Positions 8,654-15,560 are shown, counted from the first letter of the stretch. The stretch is 32,000 nt of DNA from Moraxella nasicaprae (GCF_025643275.1 NZ_CP089977.1:270001-302000), one strand, 5' to 3'. The notes: generated from the letters alone by a model not told the origin. A program made the numbers and translations.

Positions 8654-9868
<1,215 letters not shown>

Positions 9869-9931
9869 CTATTTACTCTAAATTTTGATTAAATTATCGT
9901 CTATTGTAGCACAGTTTTTGAATTTGCACGA

Positions 9932-10062
9932 GATGGCAATGACATTGATAAAATTCAGGTTACCGCAGTTAATCTATTACCCAAACAAACCTTAGAAAAT
10001 ACCTTTAAAAATACTATGACCCTAATGATGGGCGTGGTGCTCCAATTTCCACGATGGCACGC
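9932..10062 (+). pseudogene. fragment of a second zeta-toxin-like kinase domain (C-terminal part only)
   Basis: 9950-10062 aligns by hand to 13000-13113 (94/114 nt) with a 1-nt deletion in an A-run. It translates to ..KIQVTAVNLLPKQTLENTFK / YYDPNDGRGAPISTMAR, versus KVKIVAVNPLPEQALENTFKRYYDPNDGRGAPISTMAR in the full copy. Confidence 0.7.
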
Positions 10063-10199
10063 TTGGCATTGCCTTTGGTGCAAGGGGGAGTGGTTGGGCT
10101 TCTGCTCATTATGAGCGTGGCGAACAGGTTATTAACCTTACTAAAACAAGGGGTGCTGGCTCTCTGGCACATGAATGGTGGCACGCCCTAGACCACTAT

Positions 10200-12149
10200 A
10201 TGAAAAATGGCGATGACCTACTAACACGCCATTTAAACGCCAACAGCACCGCACGACACCAAGAGCTTATCGCCTCAGTCCGTGAATTAGTTAAAGATAT
10301 TCACAAATCGGAATTATACAGCCGCTCGCTCAAAGCAGACGCATACCGCAGTCAGCCCTACTTTGCAACCGATGTGGAAATGACCGCTAGGGCATTTGAA
10401 GGACATATCCAACACACCCTATCTAAAATGGGGATTAAAAATGATTTCTTGGTAAATATCAAAGCTGAAAAAGACTGGCAAAAGAACTTGGACGCTTATC
10501 CCTACCCCAAAGCGGAAGAATTAGAACCACTTGGTAAGGCGTATAATGCCGTTTTTGACACACTCAAAGAAGTGGATAAAGAATTTATACCAACTCACTA
10601 TGAGCCTGAACAGATTATCCACGCTGATACTTTGGCTGTTACAGAAGCTGAAAAGACAAAAGAAAACCAGCCTTTTGCATTGGATGCACAAAATCAGGAC
10701 AATACTTACTCAAACAGTATTGATAACGCCATACAAGGCAAGCCACTAGAGAGTGCCAAAATTTGGGTGGGTAGAACGCCACAAGTTTTGCAAATGCTAG
10801 GGGTGCAAGATTTGCCTGTGTATATTCATAGAAAAACCGTATTAAAAGACGCTATCAGAAAACACAATATAACCGCAGATGATATAAAAGCAATTCCAAG
10901 TCAGCTTGAAAGACCTATTGCGGTAATGAAATCAGCACAGACATCCAGTAATCCAAACGCTTATTTGGTTCTGACTGAACTGATCGAAAAAGAAAATGGG
11001 AAAGATAAGCCTGTTATTGCTGTCTTGTCTGTCGCTCAAAAAGAAGACAGTATAGAAATTAATTCAGTATATGGCAGAAGACAAAGCCAAATTGAAAGAG
11101 ACTTGAATAATGTGCTGTATTGGGATAGCAAAAAAGGTCAACAATTTATTGATAGCTTCGGGTATCAATTACCCCCCTCGCTATCTAATGCCGACCTTTT
11201 GCATCATTATAAAACAGAGAAAGATTTAAGTCAATATATTTTGAAAGCAAATCTTGACAAAGATTACCATGCTAAAATTATTGAGGATAATGTTAAAAAA
11301 ATCTTGCAGGATTATACAAAAGATATTATTAGATTTAATTCCAGCATTGACAAAGTAATTGGTGGCAGTTACGGGCGTGGCTATGTACCTATGGGAAGAA
11401 CACCTGATGTGCTGAAAATCTTGGGTGTGCCTGATACAAAGGTTAGAATAAAGGAACAACACCTTGAAAAGGTAATGGCAATCCATCTTGGCATTCCTGA
11501 TGGTAAATACGAAACGCCACACAATGTAACGCCTGACACTTTGCGAAAAATCCCAAGTGAGATACACAATCCAATTGCTGTATTTAAATCTTCCACAAGG
11601 GATAATTCTTATTTGACTTTAACAGAACAGCATGAGCAAAAAGCAACCACTGGTGAAAATTCGCCAATCGCTGTGATTTTCAATGTCAATGCTGGCAAAG
11701 ATGAAATTGATATTATCAATATTGGCAGCATCTATGGGCGTTCACAAAATCAGCTTGTCAAAGATTTTACAGAAAATTTACTGTATATCAATACAGAAAA
11801 AGGTCAGAAATTTCTGAATACCGAAAGGCTTCAATTGCCGTGGGATTTTACATCAGATACTTCTAACCTTTCCCAAGATTATAAAACAGAGAAAGATTTA
11901 AGTCAATATATTTTGCAAGCAAATCTTGACAAAGAACGCATCGAGCAATTTTTACAAATTGCCACAGAAATCCAAGCCAAGATTGATAACGCTCCAAATA
12001 AAGAGCTGTCTGCATTTGCACAGGTTATCTATGAAGATATTCAAAGCGTCCATGATAAGGCTCAAAAAGAAACAGCCCCAACCTTTGATGAATTGGAAAT
12101 TGCCAAGCGGCATCTTGAAGGACTAAATTATTCTTTTGAAAAAAAATAG
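10200..12149 (+). CDS. polyvalent-protein segment: C-terminal half of an HExxH zincin-like module plus two tandem MuF-C/PBECR-like domains plus a helical spacer
   Basis: 649-aa ORF. The frame stays open upstream to 10029 and there encodes GIAFGARGSGWASAHYE..LTKTRGAGSLAHEWWHALDHY. There is no Shine-Dalgarno sequence before ATG 10200. Internal duplication: aa 186-354 versus aa 393-578. Confidence 0.6.
   Translation: MKNGDDLLTRHLNANSTARHQELIASVRELVKDIHKSELYSRSLKADAYRSQPYFATDVEMTARAFEGHIQHTLSKMGIKNDFLVNIKAEKDWQKNLDAYPYPKAEELEPLGKAYNAVFDTLKEVDKEFIPTHYEPEQIIHADTLAVTEAEKTKENQPFALDAQNQDNTYSNSIDNAIQGKPLESAKIWVGRTPQVLQMLGVQDLPVYIHRKTVLKDAIRKHNITADDIKAIPSQLERPIAVMKSAQTSSNPNAYLVLTELIEKENGKDKPVIAVLSVAQKEDSIEINSVYGRRQSQIERDLNNVLYWDSKKGQQFIDSFGYQLPPSLSNADLLHHYKTEKDLSQYILKANLDKDYHAKIIEDNVKKILQDYTKDIIRFNSSIDKVIGGSYGRGYVPMGRTPDVLKILGVPDTKVRIKEQHLEKVMAIHLGIPDGKYETPHNVTPDTLRKIPSEIHNPIAVFKSSTRDNSYLTLTEQHEQKATTGENSPIAVIFNVNAGKDEIDIINIGSIYGRSQNQLVKDFTENLLYINTEKGQKFLNTERLQLPWDFTSDTSNLSQDYKTEKDLSQYILQANLDKERIEQFLQIATEIQAKIDNAPNKELSAFAQVIYEDIQSVHDKAQKETAPTFDELEIAKRHLEGLNYSFEKK
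11206..11263 (+). repeat. 58-nt direct repeat, copy 1 (57/58 identical to 11878-11935)
   Basis: ATTATAAAACAGAGAAAGATTTAAGTCAATATATTTTG[A/C]AAGCAAATCTTGACAAAGA. Encodes YKTEKDLSQYIL(K/Q)ANLDK at the end of each duplicated domain. Confidence 0.9.
11878..11935 (+). repeat. 58-nt direct repeat, copy 2
   Basis: Same sequence as 11206-11263 with one mismatch. The offset is 672 nt, exactly 224 codons. Confidence 0.9.
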
Positions 12150-14235
12150 CACCTATTATCAATTTGGCGGGCTAATCAATTATGCCAAAATGTCCATTTA
12201 TCACGAAATCGATCGCCAAGACTGGCAGAAAGTCGATGATGTGCAGGTATCGTATGACAGCATCCAAGATGAAGCCAGTCATCTGTATTCTATCAAAATC
12301 AATGGTAAAACCTATGAATTATCCAGCCAAGATATTAAACAAAGAAATTTTGATGCAATTAAAGCTGACTTAGGATATGTGGTGCATAAACAACATGATG
12401 AATATCTACAAAAAATTGCAGACCAAATCTTAGAGCATGAACAAATTATCCGCGCTGACACGCTGGCAGTTATTGGTGCTGAAAAGACAAAGGAAAGTTT
12501 AGAGCCAATTATGGAAAACCAAGAAAACAATCCCCTTAATATTATTGCCAAAGATTTTAGCGATGACCCAGCCTCCAAAGAAGTACAAGATAGAGTTATG
12601 GCGTTAGCTAAACAGCACCCACAAGAACTAATTAAAATTTATACAGAAATGAGTTCTACTTTTAACGGTCGCTATATCGCTTCTGATATGATGAAAGAAG
12701 TGTTTGAGGATTTTAATCGATCGCCAGCTCATCGCAACCAATTTAATAACGCCGTACACAATTCGGCAGCCACATTATCCGCCTTACATTTTGAGCAAAT
12801 GATTAACGAGCCAGTTATAGATGGACGTGATACAGTCGTATTTTTAACAGGTAGCCCAGGGGCTGGTAAAACTTCATCGGTAATGAATAATGACGGCTTA
12901 GATGAAACAACCAAAGTAGTTTTTGAAGGGCAACTAGCCAATGCTCATATTAGTAATGCACCCATACAAAAAATACAACAAGCCTTAGATAACAATTTAA
13001 AAGTTAAAATTGTTGCGGTTAATCCATTGCCTGAACAAGCCTTAGAAAACACCTTTAAAAGATACTATGATCCCAATGATGGGCGTGGTGCTCCAATATC
13101 TACAATGGCACGCATCCAAGGCAATACTTATGACGGCTTAAAAGCCATACATGATAAGTTTGGTGATAAAGTAGAATTGCATATCGTTGATAAACCAGAC
13201 GGTAACAAAAACACTATAAAATATACTGGCTGGCAACATTTAGATGTGCTAAAATCACAAGGTGCAGAAGCTGAAATTGCAAAGCGACTGGAAAATCATC
13301 TTATCAACCACTATTCACAGGGAAAAATTAATTATGAATGCTTCAAACAATCAGCAGGTTCAGATGAACGAGCAAAACAACTCATTTCAAGCTTGGATAG
13401 ATCGCACCATCGAGGGACACAAGAGAATGGCAACAGACGAGAAATTTCGTCAGGAAGTCGCCAAGAAAGCCACACCCAGCAGGGAAGAAGTTCAAGCCCT
13501 GTTAGCCAAGCACATACCCACATTACAAACAGCCAAACCAAACCTAATTTAAGCACTCAAAACACCTATATCAACTGCCCCTATACCGAGAAAGACCAAG
13601 CCAAATCACTAGGGGCAAAATGGGACAATACCAATAAGTCTTGGTATGTACCAGCAGGTCTTGATTTAAATAAATTTGAAAAATGGCTGACTTCTGAACA
13701 AGAGAAAAACACGAAAACACCAACCAATCAACAAAACAAAATCTACCTATACACCACCCCTGAAGACATCCAACAACTGCAAGAGCTAAAAGCTCAGGGC
13801 GTGGTTGCTTTTGATATTACACATAAAGTTTGGTATGCCAAAGAAGCTGACAATCCAGCTGTAAAACAATGGCTAAATAGACCAAACATCCCCACTCCAC
13901 AAGAGTCATTTGCAGAATACCTTAAAGCCAATGGTATTGCTGTTGTTGGTGAACACCCTATTTTAGATGGTAGAGCTCACCGTATTAGCAATAAAGGTTT
14001 AGCTGATAAAAAACACGCCCTATTGAGCGTGTTTTTGTTAGAACAAGTTGGTTTAGTAGCGGATACCTGCCATCTCTTCGGTAACACGGATAACCTGTGT
14101 GCTATAACCCATCTCATTATCATACCACACATACAAAGTGGCACGATTATCAGTAGCGATGGTGGCTTTGGCATCAAAAATAGCCACTTTCTCAGAACCC
14201 ACAAAATCAGTCGATACCGCTTCTGGCGAGTCTGA
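12136..14235 (+). CDS. polyvalent-protein segment: unknown N-terminal module, zeta-toxin-like P-loop kinase, two KWD..WY modules, truncated primase N-terminus
   Basis: 699-aa ORF in the +1 frame relative to 10200-12149. Walker A GSPGAGKTS at 12850-12876. ..VVFEGQ.. and ..FKRYYDPNDGRGAPIS.. resemble zeta/PezT-type kinases. AKWDNTNKSWYVPAGLD at about 13567-13689. The last ~220 nt (after ~14016) run through the gap terminator and antisense into gap, so they are probably not coding. Confidence 0.6.
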   Translation: MKKNSTYYQFGGLINYAKMSIYHEIDRQDWQKVDDVQVSYDSIQDEASHLYSIKINGKTYELSSQDIKQRNFDAIKADLGYVVHKQHDEYLQKIADQILEHEQIIRADTLAVIGAEKTKESLEPIMENQENNPLNIIAKDFSDDPASKEVQDRVMALAKQHPQELIKIYTEMSSTFNGRYIASDMMKEVFEDFNRSPAHRNQFNNAVHNSAATLSALHFEQMINEPVIDGRDTVVFLTGSPGAGKTSSVMNNDGLDETTKVVFEGQLANAHISNAPIQKIQQALDNNLKVKIVAVNPLPEQALENTFKRYYDPNDGRGAPISTMARIQGNTYDGLKAIHDKFGDKVELHIVDKPDGNKNTIKYTGWQHLDVLKSQGAEAEIAKRLENHLINHYSQGKINYECFKQSAGSDERAKQLISSLDRSHHRGTQENGNRREISSGSRQESHTQQGRSSSPVSQAHTHITNSQTKPNLSTQNTYINCPYTEKDQAKSLGAKWDNTNKSWYVPAGLDLNKFEKWLTSEQEKNTKTPTNQQNKIYLYTTPEDIQQLQELKAQGVVAFDITHKVWYAKEADNPAVKQWLNRPNIPTPQESFAEYLKANGIAVVGEHPILDGRAHRISNKGLADKKHALLSVFLLEQVGLVADTCHLFGNTDNLCAITHLIIIPHIQSGTIISSDGGFGIKNSHFLRTHKISRYRFWRV
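13334..13552 (+). CDS. candidate 72-aa ORF in an alternative frame inside the 12136-14235 ORF
   Basis: ATG 13334 is preceded by AGGGA (13319-13323). The product MNASNNQQVQMNEQNNSFQAWIDRTIEGHKRMATDEKFRQEVAKKATPSREEVQALLAKHIPTLQTAKPNLI looks like a normal helical protein. The co-linear main-frame stretch is S/R/Q/H-rich low complexity. Confidence 0.3.
   Translation: MNASNNQQVQMNEQNNSFQAWIDRTIEGHKRMATDEKFRQEVAKKATPSREEVQALLAKHIPTLQTAKPNLI
14009..14036. terminator. bidirectional rho-independent terminator (serves gap on the minus strand)
   Basis: AAAAACACGC (14009-14018), loop CCTATTGA, GCGTGTTTTT (14027-14036): a 10-bp perfect stem. On the minus strand it is followed by a U-run, 17 nt after the gap stop codon. 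Confidence 0.8.
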
Positions 14236-15399
14236 ATAATCAATCTGCTCTTGCCATTGCAAACTTTGGCTGGCTTGCTTGATGAACGCATTCAAGGCTT
14301 CGGCTGAACCAACTGCTTTTTCGAAGTTTAGGTTTAAAATCGCCAAAGACACATTTGGTGTTGGTACACGAATGGCGTTGCCAGACAGCTTACCTTTTAG
14401 CTCAGGAATGGCTTTTGCCACCGCAGAAGCTGCACCTGTGCTGGTCATAACCATGTTTAGTGGTGCAGCACGACCACGACGGTCTGCTTTATGATGGTTG
14501 TCCACCAGATTTTGGTCATTGGTAAAGGCGTGCACCGTTTCCATATGACCGTTGATGATGCCATACTCATCGTGTAGCACTTTTAGGGTTGGTGTGATGG
14601 CGTTAGTGGTACAGCTTGCTGCTGATACGATGGTGTCATCGCCAATGGTTTGATGGTTCACGCCATACACGATGTTTTTCACTTCGCCTTTGGCTGGGGC
14701 GGTCAATAATACTTTTGCCACACCTTTGCTTGCCAAATGCTTGCCTAGACCTGCTTCATCTTTCCATTTGCCTGTGTTGTCAATCACAATGGCGTTATTG
14801 ATGCCATAAGCTGTATAATCCACTTCACTTGGGTCGGCGGCATAAATCATTTGGATAAAGCGACCATTAGCGATGATACCATTATTGGCTTCATCAACGC
14901 TCACACTGCCATCAAACCAGCCGTGTACTGAGTCTCTTTCTAACAAACTGGCACGCTTGGCAAGGTCGCCTTCACCTGCTGGACGCACGACAATTGCTTT
15001 TAGCTGCAAGCCAGTTTCAGAGGCTGGGCGACTCATCAATAGGCGTGCCAAAATACGACCGATACGACCAAAACCATACAACACCACATCAGTAGCTGGT
15101 GCAACACCCGCCTTAAAATCAGCTGCTGTCTTGCCAGCCTTAACCGCCTGACCCAAATCGATACGGGCGGTGCTAATGCCTGATTCAACCAATGCTTGGG
15201 CAAGTTTTAGCGTGTCAGCAATCGCCACACCGTGCATATCATGCAATGCCAAAATTTGAGCCACTGATAATGCCACACGCTGACCAAAAAATGAGATTTG
15301 CACTTCTTTGGCAGCCAACAAGCTCAATGCGGCAATCAACGCAGCAGCATCTGTTTCTTGAACCTTACGGCTTGATAGATGATTGGCAAAAACTGTCAT
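14053..15399 (-). CDS. gap: glyceraldehyde-3-phosphate dehydrogenase, long form with a ~110-aa N-terminal extension
   Basis: NAD-binding GFGRIGR and the catalytic SAASCTTNA motif. I prefer the start at MTVFANH (15399), which is preceded by AAGGA. The ORF-track start is 15432. Confidence 0.9.
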   Translation of the reverse strand: MTVFANHLSSRKVQETDAAALIAALSLLAAKEVQISFFGQRVALSVAQILALHDMHGVAIADTLKLAQALVESGISTARIDLGQAVKAGKTAADFKAGVAPATDVVLYGFGRIGRILARLLMSRPASETGLQLKAIVVRPAGEGDLAKRASLLERDSVHGWFDGSVSVDEANNGIIANGRFIQMIYAADPSEVDYTAYGINNAIVIDNTGKWKDEAGLGKHLASKGVAKVLLTAPAKGEVKNIVYGVNHQTIGDDTIVSAASCTTNAITPTLKVLHDEYGIINGHMETVHAFTNDQNLVDNHHKADRRGRAAPLNMVMTSTGAASAVAKAIPELKGKLSGNAIRVPTPNVSLAILNLNFEKAVGSAEALNAFIKQASQSLQWQEQIDYSDSPEAVSTDFVGSEKVAIFDAKATIATDNRATLYVWYDNEMGYSTQVIRVTEEMAGIRY

Positions 15400-15560
15400 A
15401 AGATTTTCCTTTATTTTATGAGTGGAACACAAAAGTAACGCCTAACTTTTTCAAATTGTAAATCAAAAATTGCATTTTGGCAATCGTAATTCATTTGAAA
15501 AATATACATATTTTTTATATGAATATATAAATCAGACAGCCCACCGTCCATCATCTTTTA

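Follow-up and report, generated by a model that had tools for sequence, protein, structure and literature searches.

The chromosome of Moraxella nasicaprae (GCF_025643275.1, NZ_CP089977.1:270001-302000; this stretch of 32,000 nucleotides is called the window, and all coordinates are counted from its first letter) carries at 9932-14011, on the plus strand, an A/T-rich insert that encodes modules of a polyvalent protein, the class defined by Iyer, Burroughs, Anand, de Souza and Aravind in 2017 (J Bacteriol 199:e00245-17; PMC5512222). The insert is bordered by the promoter of obg (8654-9865, minus strand) and the terminator of gap (14053-15432, minus strand), two Pfam-supported genes that lie 4,187 bp apart, and it has evolved under purifying selection since its capture. 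Judged from sequence, it is probably an effector cassette that the host has retained from a plasmid polyvalent gene, rather than neutral debris. Two open reading frames (ORFs) occupy the plus strand of the obg-gap interval: ORF1 (10200-12149, 649 aa), with an LPD1 domain and two MuF_C domains, and ORF2 (12136-14235, 699 aa), with a Zeta_toxin domain and two DUF5710 domains. A preliminary description of the window had proposed an A/T-rich plus-strand locus of ∼4.1 kb between obg and gap, a list of modules, a mosaic polyvalent origin and a choice between relic and retained cassette. The locus itself is borne out by its coordinates, by a GC content of 0.35-0.40 across 10501-14000 as compared to 0.44-0.47 in the flanks, and by an AT skew of +0.13 to +0.28 across the same interval. 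The module list, the polyvalent reading and the mosaic structure agree with Pfam, NCBIfam and PDB searches and with plasmid homologues that share the same module grammar.

Purifying selection on the insert

The locus is known from only one further genome, the Logan assembly SRR23387602 (L082), an 11.3-kb assembly from another sample that represents a sister strain. Its gene order is clpS-hemE-obg-insert-gap-nudix, the flanks are 97% identical to those of the window, and both insert junctions are base-identical, which rules out an assembly chimera and indicates that the insertion predates the split of the two strains. The L082 insert is a single ORF of 1,014 aa (P0002) with LPD1, MuF_C, phosphoribosyltransferase (PRTase)-like and DUF5710 modules. 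Across the 678 codons shared by the two strains, the ratio of non-synonymous to synonymous divergence (dN/dS) is 0.186 at a synonymous divergence (dS) of 0.11, the result of 42 changes that are synonymous and 33 that are not (p=1e-11 against neutrality). The flanking genes obg, hemE, gap and nudix give dN/dS values of 0.012-0.065 at dS 0.08-0.15, and the two wrong frames of insert segments, taken as a control, give 0.7-4. The insert dS matches that of the flanking genes, which fits vertical inheritance and a locus as old as the strain split.

The region of the metallopeptidase remnant and LPD1 could also be compared with plasmid copies. Here dN/dS is 0.078 (dS 0.14) for the chromosomal pair, 0.11 (dS 0.90) between two plasmid copies and 0.065-0.09 (dS 0.55-1.08) between chromosome and plasmid, and the dS of 0.55-0.65 to the nearest plasmid indicates that the chromosomal copy is no recent arrival from any sampled plasmid. 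When 75 substitutions were placed neutrally in each of 5,000 simulations, just 3.5% of the outcomes remained free of stops. Within the ORF, 2/3 of the indels are 3 nt long. The dN/dS near 1 and the random stops and frameshifts of a pseudogene were not found: L082 has 0 stops in 1,014 codons, and the window has one frameshift. The insert's 5′ scrap of a zeta-type kinase does act like non-coding DNA, with 13 differences per 100 nt (9966-10065) and a 1-nt indel. Purifying selection had been named beforehand as the outcome that would speak against a relic. With a dN/dS of 0.19, an intact sister ORF and a flank-like dS, the retained cassette fits better than the dead relic, and the result speaks against a simple relic on the strength of two genomes.

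One further feature of this comparison concerns the segment 10066-10265, which spans the ORF1 start codon and differs from L082 at 1 position in 200 nt, as compared to 2-6 differences per 100 nt in other parts of the insert and 13 in the adjacent zeta scrap. This near-invariance could reflect regulatory constraint or a recent recombination tract.

Two alleles at one site

The two strains differ in module content. The segment at 11264-11865, which holds the second MuF_C module in the window, is absent in L082, where one copy of a 70-nt linker repeat is left. The zeta region (∼12400-13550) is replaced in L082 by ∼1,030 bp that encode the PRTase-like module (Pfam Pribosyltran E=3e-4, below the cut-off; NCBIfam PRTase models ∼1e-3), and the replacement begins at the second copy of an EQIIxADTLAV linker. 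Both differences could have arisen by loss from a longer ancestor or by exchange with plasmid alleles. A run of A at 12139-12146 has eight residues in the window and seven in L082, and the L082 ORF ends with a TGA at the equivalent of 14038-14040, inside the gap terminator, where the window has TTA. The preliminary description had asked whether the obg-gap interval of related strains would be empty, intact or equally broken. Eight related genomes lack the insert, and L082 has the same insertion with an unbroken frame and different modules.

The zeta scrap (9932-10053) was also aligned with 12989-13113 of the window's zeta module, giving a score of 129 for the window's scrap and 95 for that of L082. 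The closer match of the window's scrap points to gene conversion inside the locus in the strain that has kept zeta.

Plasmid relatives and what was lost

The intact homologues whose existence the preliminary description had left to be searched for were found. They are proteins of 1,190-1,223 aa encoded on Moraxella plasmids with type IV secretion system (T4SS) and relaxase genes, in which the polyvalent gene sits between topoisomerase III and resolvase, beside the T4SS and relaxase genes. An M. lincolnii protein (WP_338755961.1, 1,198 aa) is 83% identical in amino acids over ORF1 residues 1-155; its 30-kb plasmid also has T4SS genes, a coupling protein, an LPD7 protein, topoisomerase III, resolvase, Fic and a MOBP relaxase. 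P0005 (1,223 aa), from a small Rep3/relaxase plasmid contig, has 92% amino acid and 87% DNA identity over the metallopeptidase/LPD1 part, and M. bovis WP_264676374.1 (1,190 aa), from 32-kb T4SS/MobF plasmids, has 54% identity over zeta and DUF5710. The plasmid-type proteins P0006, P0003 and P0010 carry the second MuF_C type at 71-79% identity, together with the same linkers.

As compared to the intact plasmid proteins, the chromosomal locus has lost ∼345 residues at the N-terminus, which make up LPD5 and the leading third of the zincin, and at the C-terminus all of the Toprim primase along with the tail. Position 14012 of the window is where homology to P0005 ceases (∼P0005 residue 768); Toprim_3 lies ∼220 residues further on, at P0005 residues 987-1097, and the Toprim catalytic domain is absent from the locus. 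The ∼40-aa start of a primase that the preliminary description had noted does align with the leader to Toprim in P0005 and P0007.

Plasmid-type sequence was also seen in a second chromosomal setting. Positions 1-16000 of L085 (ENA ERZ23879776, a 180-kb chromosomal contig) hold a block of T4SS, coupling protein, LPD7 protein, topoisomerase III, resolvase, Fic and relaxase genes that adjoins rubredoxin, purD, ompA and rnhB, and in which the polyvalent gene is split into LPD5 and LPD1 ORFs. The block is apparently the same plasmid family integrated in the chromosome, which indicates that this family does enter chromosomes.

Junctions and insertion site

The insert fits exactly between the conserved terminator of gap and the conserved obg -10 element. 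On the left, host sequence is marked by the -10 region of the obg promoter (TGTGCTACAAT on the minus strand, 9893-9905), whose TGCTA(C/T)AAT motif is conserved in other Moraxella species, equally far upstream of obg, and is identical in L082. On the right it is marked by the gap terminator hairpin (CACGC...GCGTG with A and T runs, 14012-14046), which also follows gap in M. bovoculi (L010). Plasmid-gene homology stops on this side in the run GATAAAAA, which merges into the A-tract of the hairpin. An illegitimate joint within the insert, between the zeta scrap and the metallopeptidase remnant, lies on the plus strand at 10045-10053 inside the shared microhomology ATGGCACGC (context AATGGCACGCTTGGCATTGC in the plasmid L083 and CAATGGCACGCATCC in the window's own zeta module). 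Its two sides are out of frame, and plasmid-gene homology begins at 10054. The plasmid-derived gene body is thus joined through microhomology on its left and on its right. Neither terminal inverted repeats nor target-site duplications flank the insert borders, and a metagenome scan with the left-junction 27-mer returned no match.

The nudix-gap-obg-hemE synteny was surveyed in eight related genomes, seven from Moraxella and one a Moraxellaceae metagenome-assembled genome (MAG; loci L001, L003, L004, L008, L010, L017, L018 and L075). The gap-obg spacer measures 183-1026 bp in these genomes, and none of the eight has a polyvalent homologue in it. The spacer is empty (183-260 bp) in three, namely M. 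oculi, M. bovoculi and one MAG, and elsewhere holds LemA (M. cuniculi), DUF6984 (M. pluranimalium) or a GNAT acetyltransferase encoded on the other strand (M. catarrhalis); of two other MAGs, one has an SH3_3 protein there and the second a small membrane ORF. These different contents across species indicate that the gap-obg spacer is a permissive site of variable cargo.

Module organization

At the left end, the C-terminal scrap of a zeta-type kinase (9932-10053, plus strand, as are all modules described here) is non-coding debris in two reading frames, with a 1-nt deletion near 10009 as compared to L082; the segment 9932-10062 is a direct DNA repeat of 13015-13113, at 87% identity. It is followed by the C-terminal part of a zincin-like metallopeptidase (CLCA_X/MPTase, 10054-10199), with HEWWH as its HExxH motif at 10170-10184. 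The zincin remnant is 87% identical in DNA to the plasmid L083 and matches NCBIfam CLCA_X only at positions 68-246 of 250, as compared to 3-246 for the intact P0005. Starting from the ATG at 10200, just CLCA_X positions 164-246 are left, and the HEWWH motif falls 5′ of the ATG. ORF1 begins at a Met that is internal to the plasmid proteins, and at its position P0005 and P0007 read HEWWHALDHYMKNGDDLL.

Within ORF1, the LPD1 domain (10338-10571; Pfam PF18796, E=7e-19, residues 47-124) is followed by the first copy of a linker repeat (EPEQIIHADTLAV..., 10602-10665), which is 81% identical to 12433-12496 and also stands 3′ of LPD1 in the plasmid-type proteins P0003, P0005 and P0007. The first MuF_C/PBECR module (Pfam PF18819) occupies 10767-11263, including a C-terminal YKTEKDLSQYIL linker that forms a 70-nt repeat at 11194-11263. 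This repeat and a copy at 11866-11935, 93% identical, bound the segment 11264-11865 with the second MuF_C/PBECR module (core 11391-11753). The two MuF_C domains together reach a Pfam E of 3e-43, and, mapped by eye against the description in PMC5512222, a His (RKHNIT, TPHNVT) and the S(V/I)YGR Ser occur in both copies at the positions expected. A helical spacer at 11936-12138 is shared with P0002 and has no family or PDB match.

The A8 homopolymer (12139-12146) then splits ORF1 from ORF2. The next module (12148-12396, ∼83 aa), listed as unknown in the preliminary description, is indeed an orphan: it is known only from the two chromosomal copies (dN/dS 0.14). HMMER over 1.84 billion representatives gave two hits, both compositional false positives, and PDB sequence searches were empty. 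Its AlphaFold model has low confidence (pLDDT, the predicted local distance difference test, 62), and Foldseek against the PDB yielded nothing below E=0.59. An assignment to HigB_toxin (weak Pfam E=0.04) was dropped for want of any other support. The second linker repeat (EHEQIIRADTLAV..., 12397-12496) forms the left edge of the strain-variable module, which in the window is a zeta-type kinase of the ng_zeta1 subclass (12562-13524; Pfam Zeta_toxin above the cut-off) with the P-loop GSPGAGKT at 12850-12873. Two DUF5710 modules (KWD..K.WY; 13564-13890; Pfam PF18974, E=1.8e-23 in two stretches) and the first ∼40 residues of the Toprim-primase leader (13891-14011), which is truncated in GATAAAAA and aligns with P0005 and P0007, complete the insert.

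Start codon, frame break and zeta kinase

The preliminary description had held that the locus has no start codon, which is not fully accurate, as an ATG is present at 10200; the frame is open from 10029 and contains no ATG, GTG or TTG before that position. Its further statement that there are several frame breaks stands as to number but overstates the damage, because only one of the three switches, at the A8 tract, lies in the main body, and the other two (∼10009 and ∼10054) are in the 5′ scrap. Across the A-run, P0002 has the sequence ...NYSFEKNSTYYQF..., and L082 reads through. Programmed frameshifting at A AAA AAA was judged unlikely and set aside as the main explanation, because ORF2 lies in the +1 rather than the -1 frame and L082 has the tract in-frame.

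A small ORF of 45 aa (10054-10191, plus strand) begins at the Met of the zeta-frame ...STMAR, crosses the metallopeptidase remnant out of frame and ends 9 nt ahead of the ORF1 ATG. It is probably meaningless, though it could provide translational coupling. Upstream non-ATG starts and coupling to this ORF were both considered and set aside, as inspection by eye revealed no convincing ribosome-binding site.

The zeta module matches the Zeta_1 toxin ng_zeta1 (PDB 6EPH/6EPG) with E=2.6e-50 over ng_zeta1 residues 21-284. In the 6EPH alignment, RYIASD corresponds to RYVCAD(56) and GAGKT to GSGK(115)T, and the equivalents of Asp56 and Lys115 are conserved. These two residues are essential in ng_zeta1, which phosphorylates UDP-N-acetylmuramic acid (UNAM) and UDP-N-acetylglucosamine (UNAG) at the 4′-OH and lyses E. 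coli when no antitoxin is co-expressed (PMC5923241). No antitoxin-like gene or domain was detected in the locus: neither the spacer nor the orphan module matches any PDB entry, epsilon_1 included, a small neighbouring gene is absent beside zeta, and the kinase is an internal module, not a stand-alone ORF. In the two genomes, the zeta-bearing allele has its frame broken just upstream of zeta and the zeta-less allele has an intact frame, an arrangement that fits silencing of a dangerous module.

An M. bovis plasmid whose polyvalent protein includes a zeta module (NZ_CP087839.1) also carries, at L084 17407-18859, a stand-alone zeta toxin gene with an 88-aa ORF just before it, likely an epsilon/zeta pair, which might also neutralise that polyvalent zeta module in the donor cell.

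Genomic surroundings

In agreement with the preliminary description, no mobile-element backbone is present within the 32 kb. A Pfam scan of the ORFs in the window yielded no integrase, relaxase, T4SS or phage gene, nor is there a recombinase gene in it; a tRNA scan and an Rfam scan of the window were both empty. Outside the insert, each window ORF of at least 120 aa is housekeeping by Pfam or has no Pfam match, and none belongs to a mobile-element family; those identified encode cytochrome c biogenesis proteins, SLT, an M48 peptidase, ClpA, HemE, Obg, GAPDH, Nudix, TamB/TamA, MFS, adenylate kinase and a protein of the alpha/beta hydrolase fold. The GAPDH-like gene at 14053-15432 (minus strand) encodes an N-terminal extension of ∼110 aa, with Gp_dh_N beginning at residue 115; this extension appears conserved in other Moraxella (tblastn covering residues 3-455). 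NCBI annotates ORF1 as a gene for an 'LPD1 domain-containing protein' (P0001, 100% identity).

Discussion

The history that would best account for these observations begins on a conjugative or mobilizable Moraxella plasmid. The insert is the middle part of a polyvalent gene of the transferred-primase type, and an ancestor of M. nasicaprae may have captured it in the short interval that separates the terminator of gap from the promoter of obg. Capture could have occurred by illegitimate, microhomology-mediated joining, either directly or by plasmid integration followed by deletion. The single long frame that remained starts at the formerly internal Met just after HExxH and encodes, in order, LPD1, one or more PBECR RNase-like modules, the helical spacer, the orphan, a zeta or PRTase-like module and two DUF5710 modules. 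After capture, the locus evolved under purifying selection, with a synonymous divergence that fits vertical inheritance, and its module content changed at the repeated linkers. In this genome one extra A in the A7 run splits the frame and leaves ORF1 as the only plainly translatable product; the A8 break would keep the zeta kinase silent. Such a cassette would fall into the third genomic context of Iyer et al. 2017, suggested there as possibly defensive against further invaders.

Several observations weigh against a retained cassette. Only two genomes carry the locus, so that the selection signal is one pairwise comparison, and gene conversion with selected plasmid alleles, rather than selection on the chromosomal copy, could account for some of the low dN/dS. 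This genome has a broken frame, and both module content and frame structure differ between the two genomes. No delivery system is nearby, and the locus has lost the intact metallopeptidase thought to process proteins of this kind. The ORF1 start codon is an accident of truncation; the promoter scan gave no sigma-70-like candidate on the plus strand upstream of 10200, and no Shine-Dalgarno motif could be read before the ATG. ORF2 has no entry in the protein database and runs 65 more codons to 14235, antisense to the 3′ end of gap, and its mRNA would be non-stop if the transcript ends at the gap terminator. None of the PADLOC defence models match; the only signal, a weak one for Csn2 from the helical region (E=8e-4), was judged to be coiled-coil noise.

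Several of these points would be expected if the locus were a dead relic of a lost plasmid or integrated element, a young insertion whose long ORFs survive for lack of age alone and whose erosion has begun with the A8 frameshift as the first hit. Truncation of both ends relative to the intact homologues, the out-of-frame zeta scrap at the 5′ end, the cut zincin domain, the missing promoter and Shine-Dalgarno motif, the broken frame and the unrecorded ORF2 all fit a relic, but we regard it as unlikely. A dN/dS of 0.19 (p=1e-11), a constraint equal to that of the plasmid copies, the intact 1,014-codon ORF of the sister strain and the rarity of stop-free survival in the neutral simulations are not what a relic would leave, and a dS equal to the flanks, together with the distance to the nearest known plasmid, makes the locus as old as the strain split and no recent arrival from a known donor. 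The retained cassette is therefore favoured over the dead relic. A different doubt concerns the split itself. It is possible, if doubtful, that the A8 tract is a homopolymer error of sequencing or assembly and that the true gene is ∼1,280 codons in one frame, with LPD1, two PBECR modules, the orphan module, zeta and two DUF5710 modules. A8 versus A7 is the sole such difference, the other indels in the ORF all being in-frame, and the window comes from a 2.1-Mb complete chromosome assembly; such assemblies are usually based on long reads, which are prone to homopolymer errors. An intact frame would, however, express an ng_zeta1-like lytic kinase with no antitoxin nearby, and the window also lacks the TGA that ends the L082 ORF. 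That the insert is an assembly chimera, or contaminating plasmid sequence joined into the chromosome, might be supposed from its deviant GC content and from plasmid genes as its closest relatives, but this is effectively refuted by the base-identical junctions in the same obg/gap synteny of the independent L082 assembly and by the host promoter and terminator, which are intact at the borders.

The broken frame also invites more active interpretations. One, which we think rather improbable, is that the locus is a domesticated, truncated effector that swaps 'warhead' modules (zeta or PRTase, one or two PBECR) at its linkers, with the poly-A tract of the zeta-bearing allele gating the antitoxin-less lytic kinase so that slippage is needed for its production, and that it serves as a chromosomal anti-plasmid, anti-phage or suicide module made from an invader's weapon. 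A still less probable version is a gated suicide or defence effector in which slippage from A8 to A7, in DNA or in transcription, yields the full-length protein with an active zeta, to the death of the cell or to the detriment of incoming elements; alternatively, the T4SS of a resident plasmid could export the product. The homopolymer does stand exactly at the boundary upstream of the toxic module, the catalytic residues of zeta are intact and the zeta-less strain has an open frame; moreover, Iyer et al. propose defensive use of context-less polyvalent genes (PMC5512222). On the other hand, A7/A8 is short for efficient slippage, the correlation comes from two genomes, PADLOC gave no match, no T4SS signal or partner is known, and only one of the two strains has the frameshift, which speaks against its being programmed.

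The probable retained cassette can be placed among known systems. Iyer et al. (PMC5512222) count LPD1, MuF_C/PBECR, PRTase, MPTase, the zeta kinase and the Toprim primase as polyvalent domains, give the zincin MPTase as a hub domain in ∼36% of polyvalent proteins, common but not universal, and describe a third context of copies with no mobile-element neighbourhood, read as host-acquired remnants that are possibly defensive. The locus belongs to this already described context-less category. It has two or more distinct effector or LPD domains per polypeptide, it does not lie beside T4SS or virion genes (contexts i and ii) as its homologues do, it contains no intact zincin MPTase hub, and transposon, insertion sequence and integrative-element features are absent. 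With the third context, the locus shares the lack of a distinguishing genomic context and a plasmid-type architecture syntax; it differs in that its junctions are mapped and that truncation, purifying selection and module exchange are seen at one fixed site. Pseudogenes, degeneration and domestication are unmentioned in the accessible text of Iyer et al. 2017.

The Moraxella plasmid polyvalent proteins have the same domain repertoire and order, the same linkers and 83-92% identity in the MPTase/LPD1 part. Unlike them, the locus is chromosomal, with no T4SS, relaxase or replication genes over at least ∼10 kb on its left side and ∼18 kb on its right; it lacks the LPD5 region, a third of the zincin and the entire Toprim, and it adds the orphan module. 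With ng_zeta1, from the epsilon/zeta system of an N. gonorrhoeae conjugative plasmid (PDB 6EPH, 6EPG, 6EPI; Rocker et al. 2018, PMC5923241), the window kinase shares the kinase domain and the catalytic residues, but it is internal to a larger frame, has no adjacent epsilon gene and leaves the C-terminal domain of ng_zeta1 unmatched. Mosaics of the Helicobacter pylori jhp1044 type, as described in PMC5512222, likewise have PBECR modules that are duplicated, lost or rearranged between strains of a single lineage; those lie in (pro)phages in many combinations, whereas the present locus has two variants, in an intergenic site between housekeeping genes.

What is known of polyvalent proteins comes almost entirely from sequence analysis, and their fate after loss of the vehicle has been asserted rather than demonstrated. 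What the present locus adds is capture junctions at base level, the truncation, two alleles with different modules at a fixed site and a selection signal. With a close homologue of a biochemically proven lytic kinase behind a one-base switch, it is also a small and tractable case. If the protein is not expressed, the locus would be an ordinary pseudogene, notable only as an annotation trap, half of it being called a gene by NCBI. If it is expressed, the bacterium would have kept an invader's weapon without its delivery system, and the idea that hosts put such proteins to defensive use would become testable.

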